Assembly: GCA_045649045.1 (NCBI GenBank)
Contig: JAZRPF010000010.1
Span: 1-61,260 of the forward strand
Reading direction: 5' to 3'
Length of the DNA stretch: 61,260 nt
DNA from: Eubacteriales bacterium
Lineage (GTDB): Bacteria > Bacillota > Clostridia > Oscillospirales > CAG-272
Shown: positions 2,203-40,818 of the stretch, one piece after another
How positions within the stretch are numbered: position 1 is the stretch's first letter
How the letters are laid out: each line of letters starts with the position of its first letter
The notes under the pieces: model-generated
The model's database searches: none
Told to the model about the DNA's origin: nothing
Seen by the model: the letters and a program-made list of their open reading frames with translations, nothing else
Position numbers and translations under genes: made by a program

Positions 2203-2413
2203 AAAACATCCTTGTTCCTTTGATTTTTGAAAAACATACTAAAAATTATAGCATAGTAAACCGCGAAAGTCAAGAAAATATTGCGAAAAAAAGAAAGCTT
2301 TTGCAGGAAAGTACTGTACCTTCATCAAAAGCCAATTTTTTCCGCCTGCATAACCAAAGCCACTTTTTGTCCATACTGAAAGCAGTATAGTTACTTGCAG
2401 AATGGAGTCCTTT

Positions 2414-3187
2414 ATGTATCGGAACAAAGTGGAGATCTGCGGTGTGGATACCGCAAAATTAAAGGTTCTGTCCGACGAAGAAAAGCGCAGGCTCCTTCTT
2501 CGCACCAAGGCGGGTGATGCGGCCGCAAGAGAAGAGCTGATTTGCGGTAATTTGCGGCTTGTTTTGAGTATTGTCCAGCGCTTTTCGGGCAGGCGGGAGA
2601 ACATGGACGACTTGTTTCAGGTTGGATGTATCGGTCTTATGAAATCAATTGACCACTTCAATGTCGAGCTTGATGTGAAATTCAGCACCTATGCAGTACC
2701 AATGATCATCGGGGAAATCAGACGGTATTTACGGGATAATAATTCAATTCGTGTCAGCCGTTCAATTCGCGATTTGGCATACCGTGCGCTTGCGGCACGC
2801 GAGGAGATTTCAAAGCAAAAGGAACGCGAGCCGACGGTTGATGAAATTGCCGAGAAAATCGGTGTGCAAAAGGCACAGGTCGCACAGGCACTTGAAGCCA
2901 TTGTCGAGCCGATTTCACTTTATGAGTCGGTCTATAATGACGGTGACGATACCATTTATGTCATTGATCAACTGAAAGACCATGACGATACAGACGAGGC
3001 GTGGGTGGAAAGCATTGCCCTGCGTGACGCCATGAAAAAGCTTGGCGAGCGTGAGCGTTCCATTATTCTTATGCGCTTCTATAAGGGCAAGACGCAAATG
3101 GAAATCGCCGAGGAAATCGGTATCTCACAGGCACAGGTCTCCCGCCTTGAAAAAAGCGCCATTGAGAAAATCAGAAAAGACTTCTGA
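2414..3187 (+). CDS. sigG: sporulation sigma factor SigG
   Basis: MYRNKVEICGVDT..GNLRLVLSIVQRF..FSTYAVPMIIGEIRRYLRDNN..ISQAQVSRLEK closely parallels B. subtilis SigG as I recall it; ATG at 2414 has GGAG 6 nt upstream, preferred over ORF-track start 2402. Confidence 0.85.
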   Translation: MYRNKVEICGVDTAKLKVLSDEEKRRLLLRTKAGDAAAREELICGNLRLVLSIVQRFSGRRENMDDLFQVGCIGLMKSIDHFNVELDVKFSTYAVPMIIGEIRRYLRDNNSIRVSRSIRDLAYRALAAREEISKQKEREPTVDEIAEKIGVQKAQVAQALEAIVEPISLYESVYNDGDDTIYVIDQLKDHDDTDEAWVESIALRDAMKKLGERERSIILMRFYKGKTQMEIAEEIGISQAQVSRLEKSAIEKIRKDF

Positions 3188-3290
3188 TATACGAAAATGA
3201 TGAAGAAAAAGATTTTTTCAGGTCGAGATTCAATTTTTGTTTTTTATAGTATGACTATGTATCTTTGCGTTCATCTACCCAAGAAAAAAC

Positions 3291-3332
3291 GCAAGAACAG
3301 ACTGCAAACTTTTGTTTGCAGTCTGTTCTTGC
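3291..3332 (+). terminator. rho-independent terminator after sigG
   Basis: perfect 19-bp stem GCAAGAACAGACTGCAAAC/GTTTGCAGTCTGTTCTTGC followed by T-rich tract. Confidence 0.7.
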
Positions 3333-3662
3333 TCTTTGCATTATCTTTTTTGCTGATATCCGAGTGAATCAATTGCATCTTGCTTGCTATACTTATCATC
3401 TTTATATTGCCTCCTTACAAAAGCAAGTAATCACATTGTATCAAATGAAGAGAGAAAAGGCAAATACTTATAATCTATCGCGGTTATGTTTTTTATCTAT
3501 CGGTGCATTGACAATCAAAGCAATTTGCAAGGAAAGGACGGCGAGCTTTGGTTGCCATCCTTTTACAGTCCGACTATTGACTTTAATGGAATTAAGTGCT
3601 AAAACGGAAATATATTGCGTAGTACAAACGAGCCAATTGATTTATGAAGGGGAAAATGAACC

Positions 3663-5900
3663 ATGTCACAAACCTACTACACAAAGCCTGCTGAAAATTT
3701 CAATGAGGCACAGCCGCTCGGCAACGGCACAATCGGTGCAATGCTGTTCGGCAAGACGGAAAATGAACGCATTGGGCTGAACCACGACACGCTCTGGACA
3801 GGGATTCCATGGCATGAAACCCGTGAAGGCAACTACGATGCTTATATGAAAGCCCGTACCGAAGTTCTGACTGAAAAATACGCCGATGCGCATACAACCA
3901 TCACAGAGGGCTTTGCTTCACGCAATAATTCCGACCGCTATCAGCCGTTTGGCGACCTTGTGATAACCTTTCCAAAAGGCGGAGAAGTGGAAAATTATGC
4001 GCGTGTGCTTTCACTTGATGACGCAGTCGCAAGGGTCACCTACACGCAAGACGGTGCAAGCTACACGCGTGAGATGTTCTGCTCCTATCCCGACAAGCTG
4101 CTTGCGATTCGTCTGACAGTCGATAAGCCGGGAACACTCTCGTTCAAAGCACATCTGAAATCTCCGCATAAAAATTCTATCATTGCCGGTGATGGAAGAG
4201 TCATACTTGACGGCGAATGTCCTCTCTCTTACACGCCCGATGAATCGCCCATATACTCAAGTGACCCGAAGCAGCGCGGCATTCGGTTTGCGGGCGAGCT
4301 GCGCGTCAAAACAGATGGAACAGTCATCAATCCCGACCTTACACACAGCAACTCGGCAGTTTGCGTTGAAAATGCGACAGAAGCGGTGCTTTTTGTTTCG
4401 ATTACCTCGTCGTACATTGACCCGTACCATCGTCCTGACGGCGAATACCGCAAGCCATTGACTGAGATTTTAGACAAGGCCGAGGCTCTTGGATGGGATA
4501 AGCTGATAGCGCGCCACCTTGAAGATTATCATGCATTTTACAATCAAATTTCTCTTGACCTTGGCAGCAGCGGACGCGAGGAGCTCCCCACCGATGAGCG
4601 TCTGGCACGCTTTGAGGAAGACAAAAATGATTGCTCGCTTTATACATTGCTGTTTGATTTCGGACGGTATCTCACGATTGCCGGCTCGCGCGAGGGCAGC
4701 TTGGCGATGAATTTGCAGGGCATTTGGAACGAAAAGCTGAAACCCGATTGGCGCTGCAATTACACGCTCAACATCAACACCGAGATGAACTACTGGCCAA
4801 CGCTCATGTGCGGACTTGAATCCTGCTATGAGCCGCTTTTGAAATTTATCGAGAACCGTGTGGAATCAGGCAGAAAAACCGCACGGGAAATGTATCACGC
4901 CCCCGGGTTTGTTATGCATCACAACTCAGATATCTGGGCGATGACCACGCCGGCGATGTGCGGAAACGCTTGCTGGGGCTTCTGGAACGGTGCGGCGGGC
5001 TGGCTCTGTTATCATTTGTACGAATATTATGCCTATACGGGCAATGTTGACTATCTGCGCAAAACAGCATATCCGATTATGCTCGAAGCAGCAGAATTTT
5101 ATCTTTCGCAGCTGATAAAGCAAGACGATGGGCGTCTATCGGTTTGTCCGAATGCATCACCGGAAAACACATTTATCACTGCCGAAGGTCAGCGGAGTGC
5201 CGTTTCAAAGTGGACGGCGATGAGTGATTCGATTGCCTGTTCGCTCTTCCGAAACTGTCTTGAAGCTGCAAAAATTCTTGGCGATAACAGCACGCTTCTC
5301 GCACAGCTTGACTCGGCTCTCGCCGAAATGAAGCCCTATGAAATCGGCACGGACGGCAAAATCATGGAGTGGAATGAGGAATTTGTCGAAAGAGAAGTGA
5401 CGCACCGTCATCTTTCGCATCTCTGGGCGCTGCATCCGGCAAGGATGATTACCGTGCGCGACAAGGAATACGCTACCGCTTGCCGCAAATCGCTTGAAAC
5501 TCGCGGTGACCGCGGCACAGGCTGGAGTCTCGGTTGGAAAATTAATATGTGGGCGCGTCTTGGTGATGGCAATCGTGCAAAGCAGCTTCTGGATATGCAG
5601 CTTCATTTGGTGTCGTCAGATGTTGAAACCAATCGGACCACCGGCGGAACCTATCCGAATTTGTTTGACGCACACCCGCCGTTCCAGATTGACGGCAATT
5701 TTGGCATGACGAGTGGCATTCTTGAAATGCTGGCTTCTCAGATTCCAACCGAAAACGGCGAAGAGCTTGTTCTTTTGCCTGCACTTCCTGATGGCTGGAA
5801 GAACGGCAGCCTGCGCGGAATGCGTCTTCGCGGCGGGCAGATTCTCGATATGTGCTGGAAAGATGGCAAGATTGCGGAACATTCGCTCAAAAAAGCTTGA
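3663..5900 (+). CDS. glycoside hydrolase family 95 (alpha-L-fucosidase type)
   Basis: 745 aa; N-terminal PLGNGxxGAM, central NLQGIWN and NYTLNINTEMNYWP motifs characteristic of GH95. Confidence 0.8.
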   Translation: MSQTYYTKPAENFNEAQPLGNGTIGAMLFGKTENERIGLNHDTLWTGIPWHETREGNYDAYMKARTEVLTEKYADAHTTITEGFASRNNSDRYQPFGDLVITFPKGGEVENYARVLSLDDAVARVTYTQDGASYTREMFCSYPDKLLAIRLTVDKPGTLSFKAHLKSPHKNSIIAGDGRVILDGECPLSYTPDESPIYSSDPKQRGIRFAGELRVKTDGTVINPDLTHSNSAVCVENATEAVLFVSITSSYIDPYHRPDGEYRKPLTEILDKAEALGWDKLIARHLEDYHAFYNQISLDLGSSGREELPTDERLARFEEDKNDCSLYTLLFDFGRYLTIAGSREGSLAMNLQGIWNEKLKPDWRCNYTLNINTEMNYWPTLMCGLESCYEPLLKFIENRVESGRKTAREMYHAPGFVMHHNSDIWAMTTPAMCGNACWGFWNGAAGWLCYHLYEYYAYTGNVDYLRKTAYPIMLEAAEFYLSQLIKQDDGRLSVCPNASPENTFITAEGQRSAVSKWTAMSDSIACSLFRNCLEAAKILGDNSTLLAQLDSALAEMKPYEIGTDGKIMEWNEEFVEREVTHRHLSHLWALHPARMITVRDKEYATACRKSLETRGDRGTGWSLGWKINMWARLGDGNRAKQLLDMQLHLVSSDVETNRTTGGTYPNLFDAHPPFQIDGNFGMTSGILEMLASQIPTENGEELVLLPALPDGWKNGSLRGMRLRGGQILDMCWKDGKIAEHSLKKA

Positions 5901-5970
5901 TTAGTGTATAGCGTTACCAAGCAATCTTCCGTCAGAATGTTCAAAGCAGTGAAAACAATATTTTCAAAAA

Positions 5971-6004
5971 GAACAAGGCGAGCTTTTTATGGCTCGCCTT
6001 GTTC
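5971..6004. terminator. bidirectional terminator hairpin between convergent genes
   Basis: GAACAAGGCGAGC-loop-GCTCGCCTTGTTC, A-run before and T-rich after. Confidence 0.65.
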
Positions 6005-6010
6005 ATATCT

Positions 6011-6976
6011 TTAATTATTTGCTATTTTTAATTTAATATCTCCCGTGTCGGTGGTAATTTCACATCTGCCGCCGACCACAGTTTTTGGAACGTCAATGTC
6101 ACCTGTGCTTGTCCTGGGTATAAATACTTTCTCCGAAAGTAAAGTTCCGGTTACATCGCCCGTATCTGTTTCTACCAAAATCTCGGCGGCATCGCAACCT
6201 TCAACCTTCACATCACCCGTGCTTCTCTTAATAGAGAGCTTTTCTGCGGCAATCACATTATTCAAAGAAATATCGCCGGTGCTTCCGCGTGATATTACGT
6301 TTTTGCACGCAATATTGGCGAGATTAGCCTTGCCTGTCGATACCTTGACCGTAACATCATCCGTGCAGCTCGCACCCGAAACAGTCACCTTGCCTGTAGA
6401 AACCGAAAGGTCAAGCGATTTTGCGGATACGCTTTCAATGCGAATGCTTCCCGTAGTCGTCTTTATTTTTATGCCTTCCGAAGCGGAAGCGCCATTCGTT
6501 ATGTCGCCTGTGCTTTCCGAGATGTCAATGCTTTTGAATTGAAAATCCTTGGGTATCTTCACATCTCCCGTGCTTGAACTTATCGAAAGTGCGCCGTATT
6601 CGCCCTGCGGCATATAGACGGTTATCTTTGGCGAGCTGAAATTTATACTTATATGTTCATACCATTTTCTCGTATCTACGACCTCTATTACAAGCGTATC
6701 GCCCTTTACCGAAACCGAGTGTTTTACGTTTTTCTGCTCGTAACACACAACCGAGCATTTTGAATTTTCGGAAGGAATGAAGCTAATATCGGCAGTATTG
6801 GTAACCACCGAGATTGATTGGAAATCTTCATTTATTTCATAATTGTTTGTTTCGTACTTGTTCGTCGATAATTTCGTAAAATCCCATTTGAGCATTGCCA
6901 TCACGCCTCCAAAAATAATGCATCCAATCAATATAAAAGAAGTGGCTACAAGCCATATTTTCGCGCTTTTGCTCAT
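6011..6976 (-). CDS. DUF4097-type beta-strand repeat protein with N-terminal membrane anchor
   Basis: 321 aa; repeated STGDI/TGDV(K) beta-helix-like units; third gene of PadR-DUF1700-DUF4097 operon. Confidence 0.7.
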   Translation of the reverse strand: MSKSAKIWLVATSFILIGCIIFGGVMAMLKWDFTKLSTNKYETNNYEINEDFQSISVVTNTADISFIPSENSKCSVVCYEQKNVKHSVSVKGDTLVIEVVDTRKWYEHISINFSSPKITVYMPQGEYGALSISSSTGDVKIPKDFQFKSIDISESTGDITNGASASEGIKIKTTTGSIRIESVSAKSLDLSVSTGKVTVSGASCTDDVTVKVSTGKANLANIACKNVISRGSTGDISLNNVIAAEKLSIKRSTGDVKVEGCDAAEILVETDTGDVTGTLLSEKVFIPRTSTGDIDVPKTVVGGRCEITTDTGDIKLKIANN

Positions 6977-7575
6977 GATGCTTCCTCCTTTTTAACAAAA
7001 CACCTTTTAATACCCAAAGCCATTTTTTTGGTAAGCAGCAAAGTGCCTTTTGTTGCCGCTTTGCACCCTAAGAACAAGAAAATAGAAAGTCCTGTGCAGA
7101 ACATACTTGCACCGACCATAGCAATTCCCGTAGGACCGTTACCTTGACAGATAAAGATTACACTTGCTGCCACACCGCCGAGGGCACAAGCAACAAGCGA
7201 AACAAAGACAGCCCATACGGAAACGATAACAGAGCATAACACAGCGTAAAGTGAAAGCATCACGGCGAACGCGGCAATCGCCAGCGAAAGCCATATGGGA
7301 GAACCGAGTGCCAAAAGCACGATTTCCCATGCTTTGAGCCGCTTTTTAGGTTTGAGCCTTTCTTTTGCGATTTTGGTAAGAGGAATATCTGCTATAATCT
7401 GCGTTGCAATCTCACTTGCAGTGCCAATATCCGAAACGGCTTCTTCCTCCGTCTGCCCTTCTTCCATTCTGTCGTCAATCATTTCACTGTAAAAAATAAG
7501 ACGCTCTTCAACATCTTGCTTGGGAAGACCTGACAGGCTTATTTTGAGCGTATGTAAGAACTCTTGTTTTTTCAT
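6973..7575 (-). CDS. DUF1700-type membrane protein
   Basis: 200 aa; soluble N-terminus (LPKQDVEERLIFYSEMIDDRMEEG) then TM segments; 4-nt overlaps with both neighbours. Confidence 0.65.
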   Translation of the reverse strand: MKKQEFLHTLKISLSGLPKQDVEERLIFYSEMIDDRMEEGQTEEEAVSDIGTASEIATQIIADIPLTKIAKERLKPKKRLKAWEIVLLALGSPIWLSLAIAAFAVMLSLYAVLCSVIVSVWAVFVSLVACALGGVAASVIFICQGNGPTGIAMVGASMFCTGLSIFLFLGCKAATKGTLLLTKKMALGIKRCFVKKEEAS

Positions 7576-7889
7576 TTTTCCTCATCCTCCTTGATGACAA
7601 ATTGATAAATTGACATCACCTCACGCCACTCATTCTTGAAATCTTCAATGCGTCCAAGCCCTGCGTTTGTGATATGATAATATTTTCGTAGCCGTCCTCC
7701 ATGCTCGGAGGTATATACCGTCAGCATCCTCGCAAGCTCCAAACGCTTCAATATCGTATATAGAGTCGATTCCGACATCTCTATATAAGGCTTCATATCT
7801 TTGATAATCTTATAGCCATAAGAATCTCCACTCTTGATAGCGGCTAACACGCATACATCGAGTAACCCTCGCTTTAATTGAATATCCAT
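7572..7889 (-). CDS. PadR family transcriptional regulator
   Basis: 105 aa; LLDVCVLAAIKSGDSYGYKIIKD..TLYTILKRLE winged-helix PadR signature. Confidence 0.85.
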   Translation of the reverse strand: MDIQLKRGLLDVCVLAAIKSGDSYGYKIIKDMKPYIEMSESTLYTILKRLELARMLTVYTSEHGGRLRKYYHITNAGLGRIEDFKNEWREVMSIYQFVIKEDEEK

Positions 7890-7913
7890 AGCATACTCCT
7901 CCTTACATAATAC

Positions 7914-7942
7914 ATCATATCACGAAGTATTGTTTTTGTCAA
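7914..7942 (-). promoter_or_regulatory. sigma-A type promoter for padR operon
   Basis: minus strand TTGACA-N17-TATGAT with TG extension, about 25 nt upstream of the padR RBS. Confidence 0.5.
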
Positions 7943-8102
7943 GTGTTTCTTATAATTAATTTCAAATTTTTTACTTCAAATTGGCAACAAGCATTTTATC
8001 CACCGAAAAGAAAATCAGACTCCATAAAAAGTGTCATACCTCTGACTTTATATAGGGACAACACTTTTACATCAAAAATCATAGAGTCCATCGGACAAAA
8101 AA

Positions 8103-8149
8103 CTGTTGTCCCTCATATAACTCACTCAGGGTGTGTTATATGAGGGACA
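8103..8149 (-). terminator. terminator hairpin downstream of the displaced spoIVB 3' remnant
   Basis: perfect 17-bp stem GTTGTCCCTCATATAAC/GTTATATGAGGGACAAC; on the minus strand followed by AGTTTTTTG. Confidence 0.6.
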
Positions 8150-8181
8150 ACTTCTTTGATATATTTTCCTGTTTTTCGGTT

Positions 8182-8324
8182 TTACGACGCGTCCACTAAC
8201 GGCATAGGCAGAGAGCCGAGCATATTTTCTATAAATATCCCGTATCCCGTGGTGGGGTCGTTGATGAGCACGTGGGTGACAGCGCCGACAAGCTTGCCAT
8301 TCTGGATGATGGGGCTGCCGCTCA
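8182..8324 (-). pseudogene. displaced 3' fragment of spoIVB (C-terminal ~47 codons plus stop)
   Basis: translates [35 protein letters not shown]..., paralogous to the C-terminus of the intact spoIVB at 11599..12675; no start codon or upstream part. Confidence 0.75.
8297..8324. repeat. 28-bp exact direct repeat, copy 1 (islet boundary)
   Basis: CCATTCTGGATGATGGGGCTGCCGCTCA identical to 11702..11729; flanking bases differ on both sides. Confidence 0.9.
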
Positions 8325-8354
8325 CGACTGTTGTCAATAGGGGACAACAATTTT

Positions 8355-9188
8355 CTATAAGAATTTGCGAATTTGAGTGGGTGTAACACCAAAGTTTTTT
8401 TTGAAAGTATATGATAAATGTGACTGCGAAGAAAAACCACATATTGAAGAAATTTCTTCAATTGTTAATTGAGTTGATGTAATCAGCTCGTGTGCTTTTA
8501 TAAGTCTTTGTTTTAAGATATATTGATGGAGTGTTGTACCTTCCTCTTTTTTAAAAATTTCATTAAGATAAAAAGGATGATAATTTAGCATTTTTGCAAT
8601 TTGTTTATTATTTAAATCAATTTTTTCAGATAGTATAGCTTTAATTTGTTTACACACCGAATTGTTATGTGTATCTTGTATATTCCGGAATATATTTATT
8701 AAAATTATTTTCATGACGGCACTTTGCAATGCTTCATAGCCTTCTTTTTTCAACAATCCTTCGTCGCAAATTCGTTCCAACGCATCTTCGCACCATATGG
8801 AAGCAGGTAAATAAATAATACTTTCAAACAATTTACTCTTAGTTTCGTATTGTGTATAAAGTATGTTGCTCGGCGGACAGCCTTTATATTCCTCAGGTCC
8901 CATAGGAGCAATGTTTGAATAACTATGTGAAAAATCAAAATTCACAGTATAAATCAGCAATTTGTTTTCTTTGCACAGCGAAAACTTATAAGGCATCCCA
9001 CATGGATAATAAATAAGCGCGCCCGCTGAAAGCGGGTACACTTTTCCGCCGCTTTCAAAACTTCCATTGCCTGATAAAATGTATATAAGTCTGCAATCAT
9101 TTGCGACGATGGTTTTATCAGCAATGATATATGTGCTTTTTGCAATATATCTTACAAAAGGATTAAAATTAGTATTCACAAAATGCAC
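8355..9188 (-). CDS. AraC family transcriptional regulator
   Basis: 277 aa; cupin-like N-terminal half, C-terminal double HTH ([30 protein letters not shown]). Confidence 0.85.
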
Positions 9189-9292
9189 CCCTTTCTTTGT
9201 TTTTTGAAAAAAACTGCTTTGTTTTACATATTGATTATATCTGCTTTTTATGTTAAAGTCAATATGTAGAATTGAGGAACGGAACTGTATTT

Positions 9293-9817
9293 ATGATTGC
9301 AATGTTAATAGGAACACTTGGGATTACGGCAAACTGTGTCATATATCAGCAAAAAAACGGCAAAAATCTGTTGCTATGGAAAATGATTTCAGATATTTTG
9401 TGGTTTTTTCATTATTTGTTTTTAGGTGCGTATTCAGGAAGTGCGGTTGCTATGATAGGAGTATTTCGTGAATTTGTTTTTTATAAAGAAAATCAAAAAG
9501 AAAGAAAAAATATTTTTTTCTTAATATTTTTCTTATTCGCAACCTTTTTATTTACGATAATTACATGGAACGGCGTCACAAGTGTTTTTCCGGCGCTTGC
9601 CTCAATAATTTCAATTATAGGTTTTTGGAAAGCCAATCCCGTGCATTCCCGAGTGCTTGCTTTTCCTGTTTCAGGCCTAATGCTTACATACGATATAGGT
9701 TGTGCTTCTTATGTTGGAATTGTAAATGAAGTATTAACACTATTTGCTACAACGTTTGCAATAATTTATAATTTATACAAAAGAAAGGTTGATAAAAATG
9801 AGAATAGGTGTTGTTAA
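9293..9817 (+). CDS. YgjV-like inner membrane protein
   Basis: small polytopic membrane protein resembling the YgjV family from memory; ATG 9293 preferred over the TTG at 9272. Confidence 0.45.
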   Translation: MIAMLIGTLGITANCVIYQQKNGKNLLLWKMISDILWFFHYLFLGAYSGSAVAMIGVFREFVFYKENQKERKNIFFLIFFLFATFLFTIITWNGVTSVFPALASIISIIGFWKANPVHSRVLAFPVSGLMLTYDIGCASYVGIVNEVLTLFATTFAIIYNLYKRKVDKNENRCC

Positions 9818-10832
9818 CTGGGAACGAACAGGCTCGAGCGATACATATTTCGGGCACTATATTTCAAGAAGTCTCAGTCCGGCAAAATACAGACACAGAA
9901 CCCCTTATTATGCCGACATTATATCGAAAAATAAAATAGCTTTTCATAAAACATCACAAGAAGAATACGATAAAGAATTGCAATATGCTATTGATGCAGG
10001 AATTGATTATTTTGCATACACCTGGAACAGCGAAGAAAAAGAAAATCGCGCAGATTTACCGGATGCAACCAAAGAAGAAAAAGAAAACTATTTGAAAGAA
10101 GAAGAAAATTCAAAAAGAAAACTTCACACAAGAAGTGTTTTAAAGAAAAAAATAAAATTATGTGCAATACTTCTATGTATGCACAACTTCAGTGATAATG
10201 ATATGGAAAAGCTTTTGGAGGAAATGAAAGAAGATTACTATGAAAAAATAGATGGCAGACCATTGGTATATCTCTTTGGCGGATACAGATTGGATTTTAT
10301 TAAAAGGTTGCAAACAAAAGCAGAAGAAAAAGGGGTATCAAAACCATATATTTCTTTTTTTGATAATGGTGCAATAAGCGAAAACGGAGATTATTCCTTA
10401 GCAGATGCGGTAAGTTCTTATTCATTTGAATATCACAATTGCTCTTCTTATCTTGAATATTGCCAAAAACTGAATTTAAGAAACGACGAACGAAAAAAAT
10501 TCAATATAGATTTAATTCCTCTTTTTTCTCTGGGATATAATGCAAAACCAAGAATGGATAATCCCGTTCCATGGTTTGACGGCTATACCGAGGCAGGATG
10601 CACACCCCTTCCCACAATTCAGGATATGGCAAATGGCGGAAATATTTTTGCAGACTGGATGGAAGAAAATAAATCATATGTGAAAAGCAGACATATTATG
10701 GTTTTTGCATGGAATGAATTTGAAGAAGGCGCGTGGATTTGCCCCACATATGATGATGATTTGAATGTTGACAGCAGCCGCGTTAAAGTTTTTTCTGAAA
10801 TGGTTAAAAATTGGAAGCAACGATTATTATAA
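9798..10832 (+). CDS. hypothetical protein, glycoside-hydrolase-like (TIM-barrel type, family uncertain)
   Basis: MRIGVVNW.., AIDAGIDYFAYTW, VFAWNEFEEGAWICPT resemble WbsX/GH99-like proteins; assignment from memory only. Confidence 0.4.
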   Translation: MRIGVVNWERTGSSDTYFGHYISRSLSPAKYRHRTPYYADIISKNKIAFHKTSQEEYDKELQYAIDAGIDYFAYTWNSEEKENRADLPDATKEEKENYLKEEENSKRKLHTRSVLKKKIKLCAILLCMHNFSDNDMEKLLEEMKEDYYEKIDGRPLVYLFGGYRLDFIKRLQTKAEEKGVSKPYISFFDNGAISENGDYSLADAVSSYSFEYHNCSSYLEYCQKLNLRNDERKKFNIDLIPLFSLGYNAKPRMDNPVPWFDGYTEAGCTPLPTIQDMANGGNIFADWMEENKSYVKSRHIMVFAWNEFEEGAWICPTYDDDLNVDSSRVKVFSEMVKNWKQRLL

Positions 10833-10851
10833 AATATGGAGGACAGTTAAT

Positions 10852-11110
10852 ATGTCGGGGAAAATTCACGATCCGAATCTACTTAAAAGTTTTAAGGAAA
10901 CAACAGAAACAGACTGGTATGAGGTGACAGCTGAAAACTTTGATATTCACGGATTGATTAAAGATAAAGAAGGAAGCTTATCCTTAAGAATGCCTCTTGA
11001 TATTGCAAAAAACAGTAAGTGACGGTGTTTTTAATCAAGCAATTTATGGTGCAGGAGGAAGGATTCTTTTTTCCACAGATTCCCCCTTTATTTCAATAAA
11101 AGCCGAGTAG
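10852..11110 (+). pseudogene. decayed ORF (frameshifted 5' fragment, possibly SGNH/GDSL-hydrolase N-terminal domain)
   Basis: good RBS plus ATG 10852; frame stops at 11022 just after an A6 run (11007..11012), but the +1 frame continues VSDGVFNQAIYGAGGRILFSTDSPFISIKAE to a TAG at 11108..11110; no intact continuation. Confidence 0.35.
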
Positions 11111-11565
11111 CGTAATTGCAAAGGTGATAAAATAGCTCCAAAAGAGCGTGTCTTAATAAGTGAATTTTCACGTAATTGAGGTAGTGTCCTCTTTTTCAGC
11201 ATGAACTTTTCTTTAAATTCAGATATTGAGAGCCGTACTATCAGACGTTCAAACAAGTATTTTTTGCAATATTACCTGAGCGTGCATGCTTTTCTTTTCA
11301 ACTATGTTTAGAATTGTATTTTTTAAGCTCATTGTTTTACACATATAGCATCTGTAAATTCTTCAATATAGTTTTGAACCAATGCGATTTGGTTTTATTA
11401 TTATAAAATTACCCATTTATAAGGTTATAATGGCAAAAAATATAAAATTAGGTCACTTAATCAAAGTTGTAACACAAATGTAATATTAAACACCTCCATA
11501 TTTACTCCTTTTCACTAGCAAAATTACACATGGAAAGCGCGAAATTTCCTCTGTTATAAAAATGT

Positions 11566-11591
11566 GCCCGTCTGTTTTAAAACAGACGGGC
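11566..11591 (-). terminator. terminator of the current spoIVB
   Basis: palindromic hairpin GCCCGTCTGTTTT/AAAACAGACGGGC 8 nt downstream of the spoIVB stop, T-rich on both strands. Confidence 0.65.
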
Positions 11592-11598
11592 TTTTCCA

Positions 11599-12675
11599 TT
11601 ATTTAATTTTCTCTGCTTCAGCTAACATATTCTCGATGAATATCCCATATCCTCTTGTCGGATCATTCACAAATACGTGAGTAACTGCACCTATCAGTTT
11701 CCCATTCTGGATGATGGGGCTGCCGCTCATACCTTGGACAATCCCACCTGTTGCTTCAAGAAGTGCTTTGTCAGTGACACGGATGGAAAAGCATTTTGTT
11801 TCGCGATTGGCGGGGTGAATCTTGGTAATTTCAATCTGATATTGCTTTTTTTGTCCATTTTCAAGGGTGCAGTAAATTTCAGCGGCACCGATCTTGATTT
11901 CAGATGCACGGGCGGGGGGAAGTGCCTGCTTTTCAAGGTCTTTGGGCAGGTCGCTTAAGACGCCGAAAACGCCTGTTTCACTATTAACGGTGAGTGCGCC
12001 ACGCTTTTTTAAGCCGAGTGCGCCGCGCAATTCACCGGGTGCGCCTGCGGCACCCTTTTCAATGCCTTGAATTGAAACATCGGTGACAAGACCGCGTTCA
12101 AGCGGCATAACCTCGCCTGTGTCGGGGTCGCAGATGCCGTGTCCGAGACCGCCAAAAAGACCTGTTTTGGCATCAATGAAGGTAATGGTACCGATACCTG
12201 CGGTACGGTCACGCACCCAGACTCCAAGGTGATAATTGCCGTCGCTTTCAGACAGCGCCGGGGTGACGGTCAGTGTAAATTCCTTGCCCTGCCTTTTCAG
12301 CGTTAAGCTAAGCGGCTTTCCACCTGAATTTTTTACCGCGCTTGTGAGGTCACCCACATGGTGAATTTCCTTGCCGTCGATACGCGTAATCAAATCCCCT
12401 TTGGCAATACCGCCTTCTTCTGCCGGCTTTGCGTGCTTGCCGTCATGCACGACCTCTCCCAGATTGACGACCATGACGCCGGGCATAAACATCCGAATCC
12501 CAAAGACATCACCGCCCGGACAAAGACGCATATCCGAAAAAGCGTCCTTCTTTTCTTGTTTGACGGTTGCCACATCGGGAGCGTCGGCGGATACCTTCAG
12601 AGAGATGAAGGGGAGACTTATCGCCGCCATGAGCAGTGATAAGCATAAAAGACGATTTCCGATTTTTTTAATCAT
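11599..12675 (-). CDS. spoIVB: SpoIVB peptidase (S55 family sporulation signalling protease)
   Basis: 358 aa; signal/anchor, PDZ-like region, catalytic-Ser motif [21 protein letters not shown]; last ~35 codons are AT-rich like the adjacent islet. Confidence 0.85.
   Translation of the reverse strand: MIKKIGNRLLCLSLLMAAISLPFISLKVSADAPDVATVKQEKKDAFSDMRLCPGGDVFGIRMFMPGVMVVNLGEVVHDGKHAKPAEEGGIAKGDLITRIDGKEIHHVGDLTSAVKNSGGKPLSLTLKRQGKEFTLTVTPALSESDGNYHLGVWVRDRTAGIGTITFIDAKTGLFGGLGHGICDPDTGEVMPLERGLVTDVSIQGIEKGAAGAPGELRGALGLKKRGALTVNSETGVFGVLSDLPKDLEKQALPPARASEIKIGAAEIYCTLENGQKKQYQIEITKIHPANRETKCFSIRVTDKALLEATGGIVQGMSGSPIIQNGKLIGAVTHVFVNDPTRGYGIFIENMLAEAEKIK
11702..11729. repeat. 28-bp exact direct repeat, copy 2 (inside spoIVB)
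   Basis: identical to 8297..8324; encodes SGSPIIQNG of SpoIVB. Confidence 0.9.
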
Positions 12676-12851
12676 GACAAATTCCTATCCCGATGATAAG
12701 GATTTTACCGCACTGCGATAAAGCGCATCCTATCCTGTGGCATCCCGCAGCGCATACGGTGCGTGTTATCGAAGTACAGTATCTAATGTGTGCATGGGCG
12801 TAGGAATTATGAGTAACAATAATTGCAAGAAGTGCTATGAAAAACAAAAAA

Positions 12852-13346
12852 TCAATCGAAAAAACGAACAGCCTGCCAAGCGCAAATTAAGCGTTCAAGC
12901 GAATAGGTGGCATTTGCAGGGCTACTCGATGGCAGGGTTATCGCTTCTCGTTTGGTTTTTGGAAAAATATAGCGACGGTAGAGTGCCGCCGCCGTCTGTC
13001 CGTTTGTAAAAATTGCTTGAATTGGTGCATTTTTAAGAATGAGGGAAAGGTCATTCGGGGATACATGAGAGATGGTGCTGTCAGCACTGCCGACAATGCG
13101 GCAGGAGGCAATGACATCCCAAAGAGCAATTCGGTTTTGTAGCAAAAAAGCGCGCTTTTCTTCGACGGTGCTTGGAAGTCTTGAGTCAAAAATCGCCGCC
13201 AGAATACGCCAGAAGCGATTTTGCGGATGGCCGTAGAAGAACATTTGCTCGCGCGATTTGACCGACGGGAAGCTGCCGAGAATCAGTATTTTGGAACGCT
13301 CGTCAAAGACGGGTGCAATCGGGTGGACAACTGTTTTTTCATTCAT
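12852..13346 (-). CDS. uracil-DNA glycosylase superfamily protein (DNA-deoxyinosine/hypoxanthine glycosylase type)
   Basis: 164 aa; ILILGSFPSVKSRE..FYGHPQNRFW motif as in small UDG-family deoxyinosine glycosylases. Confidence 0.65.
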   Translation of the reverse strand: MNEKTVVHPIAPVFDERSKILILGSFPSVKSREQMFFYGHPQNRFWRILAAIFDSRLPSTVEEKRAFLLQNRIALWDVIASCRIVGSADSTISHVSPNDLSLILKNAPIQAIFTNGQTAAALYRRYIFPKTKREAITLPSSSPANATYSLERLICAWQAVRFFD

Positions 13347-13352
13347 AGTGTG

Positions 13353-15056
13353 TCACACCTCTTCTTTTTGATGTGTTTTTTCGCGTTTTTTTGCTGTTTT
13401 TGCTTGAATTTTCGCATATGCATCGGGCAAGGTCAGCGAGAGCACAAAGAGAGCGGCAATATATAAAAACAGGTTGCCAATCATGTTGTAGAGCGTGCGG
13501 TGCGTGTAAAGCGGAACCTCGGCAATGAGATAGCCTTCGGTAAGTGGCTCAAGCGTCCCGAGAAGCTCGCCCTTATTCGAAATGACCGAGGTGATGCCCG
13601 TATTGCCTGCGCGAAGAACATAGCGGCCGTTTTCCACCGCGCGCAAGACCGCTTGGGCGTGGTGATGCTCAAGCGCCACCGAGCGACCGAACCATGAGTC
13701 ATTTGTCGAAATCACAAGAACCTCTGCGCCGTCCCGTACAGACGCGCGCGCAAGTGATTCATAAATCGAGTCAAAGCAGATAAGCGAGCCAATCCGCCCG
13801 AAATTTTCCTCAAAAATCGCGGTGTCCTCACCTGCCGTCAGGTCATTCATCATGGCAAGCGTTGCCATATAAGGAAAGACGGCGTTTATAAAGGGCTTCC
13901 AAGGCAGAAATTCGCCAAAGGGGACGGGACGGCGTTTATGATAAAGCGTATCACTTCGACTGCCGTCGGCACGGAAAAGAAAGAGTGAATTATAGTCGTC
14001 CTTTTCTGCACCGCCGTTGTCAATACGGCTGAATGCGCCGACTAAATTGGCAATCCGCAGCTCTTTTGAAAGTGCCATCAGCCATTTTGTTGTGCTACTT
14101 TGCGTAGTGCCAATGTCTGTGAGCGTAGAGGGGATTGCTGTTTCTGACCAAATGACAATATCGGGGTGCATCGCCCGAGCATCTGCCTCTGCGACCAATT
14201 CGCGCAATAGCCTTTCGTAACGCTCATGTAAACTTTCATTTTCATTGTTCCACTTATCGCGCGAGGAAACATTACCTTGTAAAAGTCCGACGGTGACAGT
14301 GCTAACGGGCTTGCTTTGTATATGCCCAATGATTGAGCCGGCGAGAAAATTCAGGAGAAATACGCCGAGCGCAAGGCAAGCAGGCAAACGGCATTCAAGC
14401 AGACGGCGTCGCTTGTCCTTTCCTGCACGGCGGAAAAAGAGAAGTCCAAGTGCCAGATAGCCATTGACAAGCATGATGATGAAGGTGATGAAATAGCCGC
14501 CAAAAAGAGAGGCTGTGGCAATCAAGGCGGGGTGAGCGGCTTGTGTAATTGCCATCATACCCCACGGCACGCCCATCCATGTCAGTGTGATGAGTGCCGA
14601 GAAGACCGTCCATACAGATGCGAACAGAGGGGGTAATAAAAGCGGATGCTGCCTGACTGCTGTCAGGTTGGCGAAAATTGAGAATGTTGGATAAATAAAG
14701 CCAAAGCAGAGGGTGGCAATCAGCGCAAGACCAAGCCATGCGACACAAACAACAAGTGCCGCCCCGAGAGGAGAAAGGTCTGCAATAAAGTCAAGCGGAT
14801 ACATCGAGATAAACCAATGATAGACGCCGAGATAAAAGCCGAAGGCGAAAAAGAAGCCTCTGTAAAGATAGCAGCGGTAGCGTTTTTTTTCCGCCTCGGT
14901 TGCATCTGAAAACAGAAAGAAAAGCGCCGGGATACCTGCAATATACGCAAGCGGCGCTGACAGTGATGAAATCGGCAGGAAGGGAACTGCAAGGCAAATG
15001 CCGCAAAGAAGCGAGCACAGCCAGATGGGAAGCTTTTTCACATTGTATCCTTTCAT
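13353..15056 (-). CDS. lnt: apolipoprotein N-acyltransferase-like protein (polytopic N-terminus plus CN-hydrolase domain)
   Basis: 567 aa; multiple TM segments then nitrilase-fold domain with E (WSETAIP), K (YHKRRPVPFGEF) and C (GSLICFDSIY) in Lnt order. Confidence 0.7.
   Translation of the reverse strand: MKGYNVKKLPIWLCSLLCGICLAVPFLPISSLSAPLAYIAGIPALFFLFSDATEAEKKRYRCYLYRGFFFAFGFYLGVYHWFISMYPLDFIADLSPLGAALVVCVAWLGLALIATLCFGFIYPTFSIFANLTAVRQHPLLLPPLFASVWTVFSALITLTWMGVPWGMMAITQAAHPALIATASLFGGYFITFIIMLVNGYLALGLLFFRRAGKDKRRRLLECRLPACLALGVFLLNFLAGSIIGHIQSKPVSTVTVGLLQGNVSSRDKWNNENESLHERYERLLRELVAEADARAMHPDIVIWSETAIPSTLTDIGTTQSSTTKWLMALSKELRIANLVGAFSRIDNGGAEKDDYNSLFLFRADGSRSDTLYHKRRPVPFGEFLPWKPFINAVFPYMATLAMMNDLTAGEDTAIFEENFGRIGSLICFDSIYESLARASVRDGAEVLVISTNDSWFGRSVALEHHHAQAVLRAVENGRYVLRAGNTGITSVISNKGELLGTLEPLTEGYLIAEVPLYTHRTLYNMIGNLFLYIAALFVLSLTLPDAYAKIQAKTAKKREKTHQKEEV

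Positions 15057-38943: not shown

Positions 38944-40818
<1,875 letters not shown>

Follow-up and report, generated by a model that had tools for sequence, protein, structure and literature searches.

How did a single spoIVB gene come to have two 3′ ends, separated by an islet of 3.4 kb? Sporulation has a sigma-K checkpoint, and spoIVB encodes the protease that triggers it; in Bacillus subtilis the gene is expressed in the forespore, not in the mother cell. In the DNA analysed here (the window, 61,260 nt of a contig from a Eubacteriales bacterium), the live gene lies at 11599–12675 on the minus strand and encodes 358 aa with PDZ and Peptidase_S55 domains (Pfam E = 1e-80). In an alignment to B. 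subtilis SpoIVB (PDB 9lnf), its Ser317 falls on the S378A position, S378 being the catalytic serine mutated in that protein (PMC12502668). From the Ser317 codon onwards the gene is chimeric, and finishes with an AT-rich 3′ end (SGSPI..ENMLAEAEKIK and stop; 11599–11727, minus strand) followed by its own intrinsic terminator (11566–11591, minus strand). Downstream lies a second, diverged and GC-richer 3′ end, an orphan at 8182–8322 on the minus strand, which corresponds to the final 36 positions of Pfam Peptidase_S55 (E = 9e-19), has no gene body upstream, and is followed by a hairpin at about 8103–8151. The GC3 values are 0.42 for the live 3′ end, 0.51 for the gene body and 0.72 for the orphan. 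As to the two 3′ ends and their terminators, the first-pass annotation was borne out.

That annotation also described an exact 28-bp repeat bracketing an AT-rich islet. Exactly two copies occur in the window (8297–8324 and 11702–11729, both read on the minus strand), two matches were found in 0 of 100 shuffles, and the GC content of the islet (8352–11598) is 0.33 versus 0.47 for the whole window. On the minus strand the repeat consists of TG followed by AGC GGC AGC CCC ATC ATC CAG AAT GG, encoding SGSPIIQNG. In copy 2 the TG is at 11729–11728 and the catalytic-Ser codon AGC at 11727–11725, and in copy 1, where the orphan end begins, the TG is at 8324/8323. Beyond the 28 bp the two gene-end copies share only about 67–77% nucleotide identity. 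Among related loci the exact-identity run after the TG varies from 2 to 91 bp, while homology between gene ends always begins at the TG before the catalytic-Ser codon. As read from these alignments, the 28-bp repeat is therefore not a fixed attachment core and the junction is the TG itself; the TG at 11729–11728 would be the crossover point.

The gene nearest the orphan end encodes an AraC-type regulator (8355–9188, minus strand; Pfam HTH_18 and HTH_AraC). It is followed on the plus strand by genes for an Imp-YgjV family membrane protein (9272–9817; Pfam E = 1.7e-28) and a 347-aa protein (9789–10832), and by the N-terminal stump of a GxDLY/GDSL esterase gene (10852–11109). The stump results from a 792-bp deletion with its junction at about 11107–11109, and the gene is whole (358 aa) in a sister strain (L081). 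The AraC regulator, the YgjV-like protein, the decayed reading frame and the absence of a recombinase had all been recognised beforehand; the 347-aa protein, then described as glycosidase-like, has only weak, sub-threshold WbsX/GH71-like matches. Neither Pfam nor tblastn with 12 large serine recombinase (LSR) proteins detected a recombinase or recombinase pseudogene within the islet, and no integrase was found beside spoIVB. The sole tblastn match of the 12 LSR proteins in the window (39046–40605, about 30% identity) belongs to another island; used as a probe, this serine recombinase gave no match near spoIVB in 125 loci. The islet itself occurs at 95–99% identity in cattle and faecal metagenomes that are without the spoIVB body of this species.

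The live end travels with the islet from the Ser codon onwards, in agreement with the earlier proposal that the incoming DNA brought its own spoIVB 3′ end and pushed the older end downstream. Since this spare end belongs to the unit, SpoIVB is intact: the 358-aa frame is unbroken and all invariant C-terminal residues are kept. Comparison of relatives, suggested as a check at that time, points the same way, as the closest SpoIVB relatives (57–70% identity) end like the orphan (..MPLKKAA, ..QMPMAKAS, ..QTPLARAS) and not in ..AEAEKIK. The live tail class, with a similar terminator, is also present in other species. Live and orphan ends differ at 4 of 35 conserved residues, and have tails of 7 and 11 aa, respectively. 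Across the 80 species compared, SpoIVB tails are 3–16 aa long and free to vary, so the exchange of ends probably had only a small effect on the protein. It is very likely, judging from the sequence, that SpoIVB is still functional and that the islet is passenger DNA.

Two or three gene ends, often in tandem, were found at 10 of 80 species-level spoIVB loci, and all 13 orphan ends begin at position −2 from the Ser codon. The stored ends measure 130–144 nt, starting at the catalytic serine. One unit is present in the window and two in the sister strain (L081–L083); at L058, and again at L016, the gene end occurs three times, and L036 also carries a row. The cargo of such recombinase-less units includes AraC-regulated sugar-use genes, toxin-antitoxin pairs and similar genes. 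A 25-nt motif (L) precedes 13 of 13 orphan ends in these loci, and its mean pairwise identity is 0.72 versus 0.28 further upstream. In the window, L lies at 8326–8350 on the minus strand, abutting the orphan end, with the AraC stop codon 4 nt from the L region. The same junction was present in 30 of 30 metagenome contigs, found by a search pattern that itself required L. A prophage-like region beside spoIVB in a relative with 66% identity (L089–L095) was considered separately; it has neither a recombinase nor an orphan end, and so gives no support.

The origin of L became apparent from larger elements at the same site. IMG/VR, searched for L with a strict pattern, yielded no exact match. Four of its contigs carry three tandem LSR genes (Resolvase, Recombinase and Zn_ribbon) next to L, which lies within the 41–165 nt that separate the last stop codon of the triplet from the Ser codon. 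In one host, both the empty and the occupied site could be read. The empty site is ..GGGGATG/AGCGGAAGC.. (the slash marks the junction) and encodes a SpoIVB of 429 aa. The occupied attL reads ..GGGGATG/TGAGTGAGTTATAATAAGGACAAC, giving a 392-aa ORF terminated ..ATG/TGA, and the attR reads ..TGTTGTCCTTTACTTGACACACTCATG/AGCGGAAGC.., after which identity to the empty allele is 98.65% over 445 bp. The attL of this element (L139) was not reached within 50 kb leftward from its attR, and was located through the neighbour genes of the empty site. The last 37 codons of the split spoIVB lie about 108 kb from attL. This one full-size element with both junctions read thus splits spoIVB and carries no spare gene end. 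The palindromic attP reconstructed from the empty and occupied sites has L as its left half, and the attB of the LSR family, as deduced from these junctions, is centred on the TG before the spoIVB catalytic-Ser codon. The junction TG of the window is in the identical position to the true attL, attR and attB of the full-size element. No published report of spoIVB as a target of such elements was found.

The window islet shares with this family the junction position and an L motif, a P-type half-site of the elements' attP, abutting the displaced end, and lacks the recombinase triplet. It also has no attL-type border (gene body joined to the R arm): no R arm follows the TG, and the gene continues in frame into the spare end. 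The L of the window matches the profile with E = 0.001, agreeing with the consensus at 22 of 27 positions and differing at 5. The hairpin at about 8103–8151 is an attP-like imperfect palindrome, with arms matching L and R of the reconstructed attP and a T-run, and it may also serve as a terminator. A degenerate third arm-like copy (TGTTGTCCCTATATAAA) lies at 8050–8066 on the minus strand. Given the five mismatches between L and its consensus, and a hairpin centre 3 nt shorter than that of the true attP, the att-type sites of the window may be dead. The orphan end may not be native to this lineage: a strain of 94.5% identity continues differently beyond ..ENML, and tails of the ..AKAS type, along with the attP-like hairpin, recur across species.

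Other classes of site were also considered for the palindromes. An integron arrangement (the tyrosine integrase IntI beside attI, with attC hairpins) was rejected: no integrase lies beside spoIVB, and the sequences are not attC-like because the palindrome is broken at its apex, whereas attC hairpins recombine at the base. An Rfam scan of 7000–13000 returned only one sub-threshold chance match. The A-rich flank of L prompted a comparison with Xer/dif (IMEX) sites, which span 28–31 bp and have Xer-binding arms. This reading was likewise rejected by eye; L does not resemble the B. subtilis dif site. It is also unlike the published difSL arms TTTCCGAAAA and TTTTCTTGAAA (PMC5357621).

The reading that best accounts for the locus, to which we give a probability of roughly 0.6, is that LSR elements of one family dock at this position in gut Clostridia, and that the islet is a non-autonomous unit of cargo lodged there, with an attR-type scar as its right border. 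An LSR event in an ancestor of the window DNA would have created the junction between L and the old end, so that at the right border (L at 8326–8350 plus the orphan end) one half of an attP would be joined to a spoIVB 3′ end of older date. On the left, the border would be the live gene itself, read from the AT-rich spare 3′ end of the unit from the Ser codon onwards. Units with spare ends would arise and spread secondarily, likely by homologous or Campbell-type recombination in the repeated gene ends of 110–140 bp, or by co-mobilisation alongside a full-size element. Their formation is not explained by a known reaction, because canonical LSR recombination of attP with attB leaves the gene split and produces no unit with a spare end. 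The earlier idea of an incoming element carrying a spare gene end applies to the window unit but not to its full-size relatives, which split the gene instead.

The most recent movement of the islet can be reconstructed. Positions 12300–8217 of the window are about 99.8% identical to L081, whereas the backbone is 94.5% identical to the same strain, and this difference shows that the islet last moved by homologous recombination, with crossovers in the spoIVB body near 12300 and in ..ENML of the orphan near 8217. Homologous recombination could in principle be the whole explanation: an old block would have spread among relatives through the conserved SGSPI..ENML codons, either by double crossovers of the RecA type or by Campbell insertion, with L as a hitch-hiker and no recombinase ever active in or near the lineage. 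Both ends of the identity patch lie within homologous spoIVB sequence, the exact run past the junction ranges over the 2–91 bp given above, gene-end copies are mosaic in identity (e.g., L014, L078 and L051), and efficient recombination through RecA processing takes at least about 28 bp. This explanation is nevertheless unlikely, as it leaves unaccounted for the dozens of differing cargos between gene end and L, and the conservation of L (0.72 vs 0.28) at an identical nucleotide in distant species, and the junction of L with a gene end is demonstrably made by LSR elements elsewhere. Of the two mechanisms offered in the first-pass annotation, each is seen in part, site-specific integration in the L scar before the orphan and homologous recombination in the identity patch.

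Site-specific integration had been coupled there with later loss of the integrase, that is, a full-size element would have integrated at this site and deletions would have removed its recombinases and mobility genes in place. Other hot spots often harbour decayed ICEs and remnants without an integrase (PMC4701971), and the esterase gene of the islet has undergone a deletion of 792 bp. Even so, in-place decay is not supported and very unlikely. The recombinase genes directly adjoin L in full-size elements, yet no serine-recombinase fragment was found in the 13 junctions of related loci and 30 metagenome contigs screened. Moreover, full-size elements leave a B/R junction and a stop codon at their left end, not an intact gene, and the same unit, at 3.4–4.2 kb, is present in another strain and on other backbones.

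The tandem rows raise a further alternative, in which the recombinase triplet of a resident full-size element acts on units of gene end, cargo and L, and each insertion regenerates the site in an integron- or SCC-like manner. Besides the rows themselves (L081–L083, L058, L016 and L036), the conservation of L in units without a recombinase and the attP-like palindromes and possible inverted attL scars inside the rows are as expected from such trans-mobilisation. It is improbable, as it would require LSRs to recombine an attR-type site with attB, a reaction not known for them, and no full-size element lies beside a row among the 80 species loci. No circle or excision joint (8297/11729) was seen in contigs assembled from five runs in which this or the sister strain is present, although contigs cannot show absence. 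A broader version, which we also regard as improbable, is that spoIVB acts as a cassette platform, with [spare end – cargo – attP half-site] units moved in trans by, or alongside, the LSR triplets of resident gene-splitting elements, and a minimal unit re-sealing the split spoIVB. An odd contig joint (X12) connecting 11619 to 8218 was also observed; rather than a circle, it probably represents a recombinant end of the gene from a different organism.

Storage of several alternative ends in direct orientation might instead suggest programmed switching of the SpoIVB C-terminus between them. This is extremely unlikely: the tails are short (3–16 aa) and unconstrained, an exchange between direct repeats would lose the cargo for good, and variant junctions were not seen in the contigs of the five runs.

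With the islet taken as a non-autonomous unit at an LSR docking site, the locus can be compared with known systems. Skin and SPbeta each encode a serine recombinase at the element edge. Together with gin and yin, they split sporulation genes at a precise site (sigK, spsM, gerE and yabG for skin, SPbeta, gin and yin, respectively; PMC5595907, PMC10747680). Full-size relatives of the islet likewise split spoIVB precisely, with TGA at attL, differing in the target and in having three recombinases rather than one. An interrupted ORF that requires excision for function, as in skin, is found in these relatives but not in the window, where the islet is recombinase-free and the gene unsplit.

SCC elements use Ccr serine recombinases and a site at a gene 3′ end, and the gene stays intact; pseudo-SCC elements are without ccr, and units are separated by gene-end repeats of about 15–20 nt. 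SCC/SCCmec and composite islands lie at the 3′ end of rlmH (orfX) (PMC13739063; bioRxiv 10.1101/336396). SpoIVB loci similarly show rows of recombinase-less tandem units between repeats of the target-gene end, but the target is not rlmH, and the stored ends extend 130–144 nt from the catalytic serine, against about 15–20 nt in SCC. Streptococcus ICEs with a serine-integrase triplet target hsdM, traG and mutT (Ambroset et al. 2016, PMC4701971). Like the spoIVB elements, they have three tandem Resolvase, Recombinase and Zn-ribbon genes at one end and insert within a protein-coding gene; the hosts and target differ, and the likeness is one of gene layout.

The ssrA islands of Dehalococcoides reportedly stand in rows with short repeats. 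McMurdie et al. (2011, PMC3146451) describe many islands of varied cargo at this one conserved gene, with an integration module in only 16 of 31. Their target is an RNA gene, whereas spoIVB is a protein gene. In phage 21/e14 at icd and in ICESt1/CIME accretion at fda, the element supplies a diverged 3′ end, the old end is left as an orphan, and derivatives lacking the integrase can stand in a row with intact elements. These use tyrosine integrases and carry the spare end in attP, while the full-size spoIVB element read at both junctions has no spare end.

The catalytic-Ser codon of spoIVB is a recurrent landing site in gut Clostridia, where large elements split the gene and small units keep it whole. 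As a hot spot of variation between strains of gut spore-formers it had not been reported before. It supplies a three-recombinase system with a defined pair of sites, the palindromic attP and its attB, and suggests that mobile DNA and the capacity to sporulate may be linked. If the cassette-platform reading were true, the elements would both break and mend a sporulation checkpoint gene, with a minimal re-sealing unit (gene end plus attP) of about 190 bp, and would stack metabolic cassettes as a by-product.

The spoIVB gene (11599–12675, minus strand) encodes a 358-aa protein whose Ser317, in an alignment to the B. subtilis enzyme, falls at the S378A position (PDB 9lnf), S378 being the catalytic serine of the latter (PMC12502668). 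The 28 bp repeat reported at this site by the first-pass annotation is exact and has only two copies (8297–8324 and 11702–11729); no double match arose in 100 shuffles. Its minus-strand reading is TG and then the SGSPIIQNG codons, and past it the identity between the copies falls to 67–77%. The Peptidase_S55 match of the displaced gene end (the orphan, 8182–8322) is confined to the final 36 positions of the domain (E = 9e-19). The islet between the repeats has a GC of 0.33, and third-position GC is 0.42 in the gene end in use (the live end), 0.51 in the gene body and 0.72 in the orphan, a composition that supports a foreign origin of the live end. The two ends differ at 4 of 35 conserved residues (I/V, F/L, V/I, R/T). 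All invariant C-terminal positions of SpoIVB are retained in the live protein, and the tail after ..ENML is 3–16 aa long and unconstrained across species; judged by its sequence, this SpoIVB is very probably active.

The islet carries genes for an AraC regulator, an Imp-YgjV protein and a 347-aa protein with only sub-threshold matches to glycosyl enzymes, together with a GxDLY/GDSL esterase gene that a 792-bp deletion has reduced to a stump; no recombinase is left in it. Two genes upstream of spoIVB, beyond a UDG-family gene, lies an Lnt-type apolipoprotein N-acyltransferase gene (LNT_N and CN_hydrolase, 13353–15056). Such a gene is conserved near spoIVB in the loci of relatives, and the usual recN-spoIVB neighbourhood is missing from this lineage.

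Two or three gene ends were found in 10 of 80 species-level loci (SpoIVB identity 44–55%), counted within the available flank. In the multi-end loci all orphans start exactly at -2 from the Ser codon, and the stretch over which they are identical to the live end ranges from 2 to 91 bp, so the 28 bp do not represent a fixed core. Ahead of each orphan stands a motif foreign to spoIVB (L, consensus TGTTGTCCCTACTTGACCACACTC; 8326–8350 in the window), with a mean pairwise identity of 0.72, versus 0.28 fifty bases farther upstream. A metagenome scan for L plus Ser-Gly-Ser-Pro codons added 30 junctions, a set biased by the search pattern. The cargo is different at every locus, e.g., GH32, PfkB and AraC; KDPG aldolase and a kinase; a glycyl-radical enzyme and its activase; a BNR sialidase and a DHDPS-family protein; SIS/BadF-family genes; AAA_14 ATPases; a Fic/Doc protein with a small adjacent ORF, a putative antitoxin; or EamA transporters. 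No recombinases or fragments of them were present in the multi-end loci or in the metagenome junctions with varied cargo.

A second kind of junction occurs inside the cassette rows of four loci (L058, 9098–9160; L055, 9071–9120; L036, 10944–10990; L051, ~9146), where a 20–27 nt piece resembling the spoIVB body (..GGCATCATCCAAGG..ATG) is joined, on the opposite strand, to the other attP arm (R). It looks like an inverted attL scar, with moderate similarity (14/15, 23/32 and 13/19 positions). Orphan ends in L098, L106, L111, L116, L123 and the third copy of L058 break after an Ile codon, at differing positions, and run on as ..ILLC.. or ..ILLAS.. (DNA ..ATACTCCTTGCGAGC..), a pattern that suggests another small insertion element landing within orphans.

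In four IMG/VR contigs, L stands immediately before an SGSPI.. fragment, with three tandem large serine recombinase genes just upstream; orthologues are 51–61% identical between elements, and paralogues ~30%. One such full-size element is present in NCBI assembly GCA_000403845.2, and strains of that host show both empty and occupied sites. The empty site is recN followed by a 429-aa spoIVB (..CAGGGGATG/AGCGGAAGCCCC.., slash at the junction). At the occupied left junction (..CAGGGGATG/TGAGTGAGTTATAATAAGGACAAC..) the ORF ends immediately, at 392 aa and without the catalytic serine, while the right junction (..TGTTGTCCTTTACTTGACACACTCATG/AGCGGAAGCCCC..) leads into the remaining gene and its neighbour, 98.65% identical to the empty allele. 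The junctions are ~108 kb apart on the scaffold. This comparison shows that the family integrates at the TG, splitting spoIVB, and identifies L as the left half of attP. Reconstructed as L-ATG-R, attP forms a near-perfect palindrome of ~50 bp. A hairpin behind the orphan (8104–8151) has the same two arms with a centre 3 nt shorter, and the same hairpin is found after ..AKAS-type tails in five other loci (L036, L042, L051, L055 and L058), which accounts for the GGGACAAC repeats in the window's genome.

The split at the catalytic-Ser codon in this host, another of the gut Clostridia, is seen in scaffold KE159569.1 of GCA_000403845.2 and relatives (L164–L173, L159–L162), and there are also strains whose 429-aa gene is intact. 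The intervening mobile DNA carries Fic, DUF5348 and NlpC_P60 genes at its left end, and at its right end a RecD2-like helicase, YqaJ, SSB, a ParM-like protein, toxin-antitoxin pairs and the three serine recombinases. Within it (L155, 813–2231, and L157) are also a 472-aa NUDIX protein, an IS256-type transposase, Fpg gene fragments, and a tyrosine recombinase with a sortase gene, and the 108 kb may be a composite of several elements. The window has a lone large serine recombinase gene (38944–40773), ~30% identical to every triplet member, which belongs to an island behind rplQ and is unlinked to the spoIVB site.

On its right the islet is bordered by an attR-type scar, and on its left by the intact gene read into the unit's own spare end. 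The full-size element brings no spare end and splits the gene (one element, both junctions readable), and canonical attP × attB recombination cannot yield an intact left gene with a spare end. The first of two routes proposed earlier, site-specific integration with later loss of the integrase, agrees with the scar at the right border, but decay of a full-size element in place is unlikely, since no recombinase remains and the left junction is not the kind that such an element leaves. On this reasoning the unit would be a secondary product and would now be spreading by homologous recombination, as a patch in the window shows directly; the islet is also present on other backbones (cattle and faecal metagenomes).

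The patch was seen against a sister strain. SpoIVB of 99% identity occurs on eight metagenome contigs (L081–L088), all with the islet and an intact esterase gene. Over the backbone the sister strain and the window share 94.5% identity, whereas 12300–8217, from mid-spoIVB across the islet to the orphan's ..ENML codons, has only 8 mismatches and the deletion. This stretch is a homologous-recombination patch with both ends in spoIVB sequence, a trace of the second proposed route. Past 8217 the two are unrelated as far as a sigG-like sigma gene (window 3188); in this interval the sister strain carries a second unit (epimerase, dehydroquinase, AraC) along with a third gene end. The unit may have originated by looping-out between successive repeats of L plus gene end followed by Campbell insertion, by movement alongside a full-size element, or by non-canonical recombinase reactions. 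No excision joint of the islet was seen in contigs assembled from sequencing runs.

The 5 kb absent from the sister strain (3189–8217; the shared sigG-like gene is 2402–3187) include a GH95 fucosidase gene (3663–5900), a DUF4097/HAAS/PadR operon (6011–7889), and the orphan's tail and hairpin. A 36 nt stretch (7908–7943), which includes a near-consensus promoter (TTGACA-17-TATGAT, with TG) preceding the PadR gene, has very high summed metagenome depth and unrelated flanks on either side, and is thus common to many organisms.

As the first-pass annotation had expected, the next relatives (57–70% identity) have a spoIVB ending like the orphan, not ..AEAEKIK. The AEAEKIK-type end, with a similar terminator, is the sole end in four distant species (L017, L025, L028, L069), which are candidate donor lineages. 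In contigs with a 66% identical SpoIVB (L089–L095), a phage-like region (terminase, portal, amidase, CI-type repressor) begins 450 bp past spoIVB and extends ~20–25 kb toward pyrB/pyrI, without a recombinase or an orphan gene end.

Several known systems match part of this picture. End replacement of the e14/icd type is one. Others are gene-intervening elements (PMC5595907, PMC10747680), ICEs with triplet serine integrases (PMC4701971), SCC rows at rlmH (PMC13739063; 10.1101/336396) and ssrA islands (PMC3146451). In splitting spoIVB, which in B. subtilis is expressed in the forespore, the full-size elements act as skin-type elements do on other sporulation genes. No report joining spoIVB to a serine recombinase, attB, prophage integration or an intervening element was found in the literature searched.
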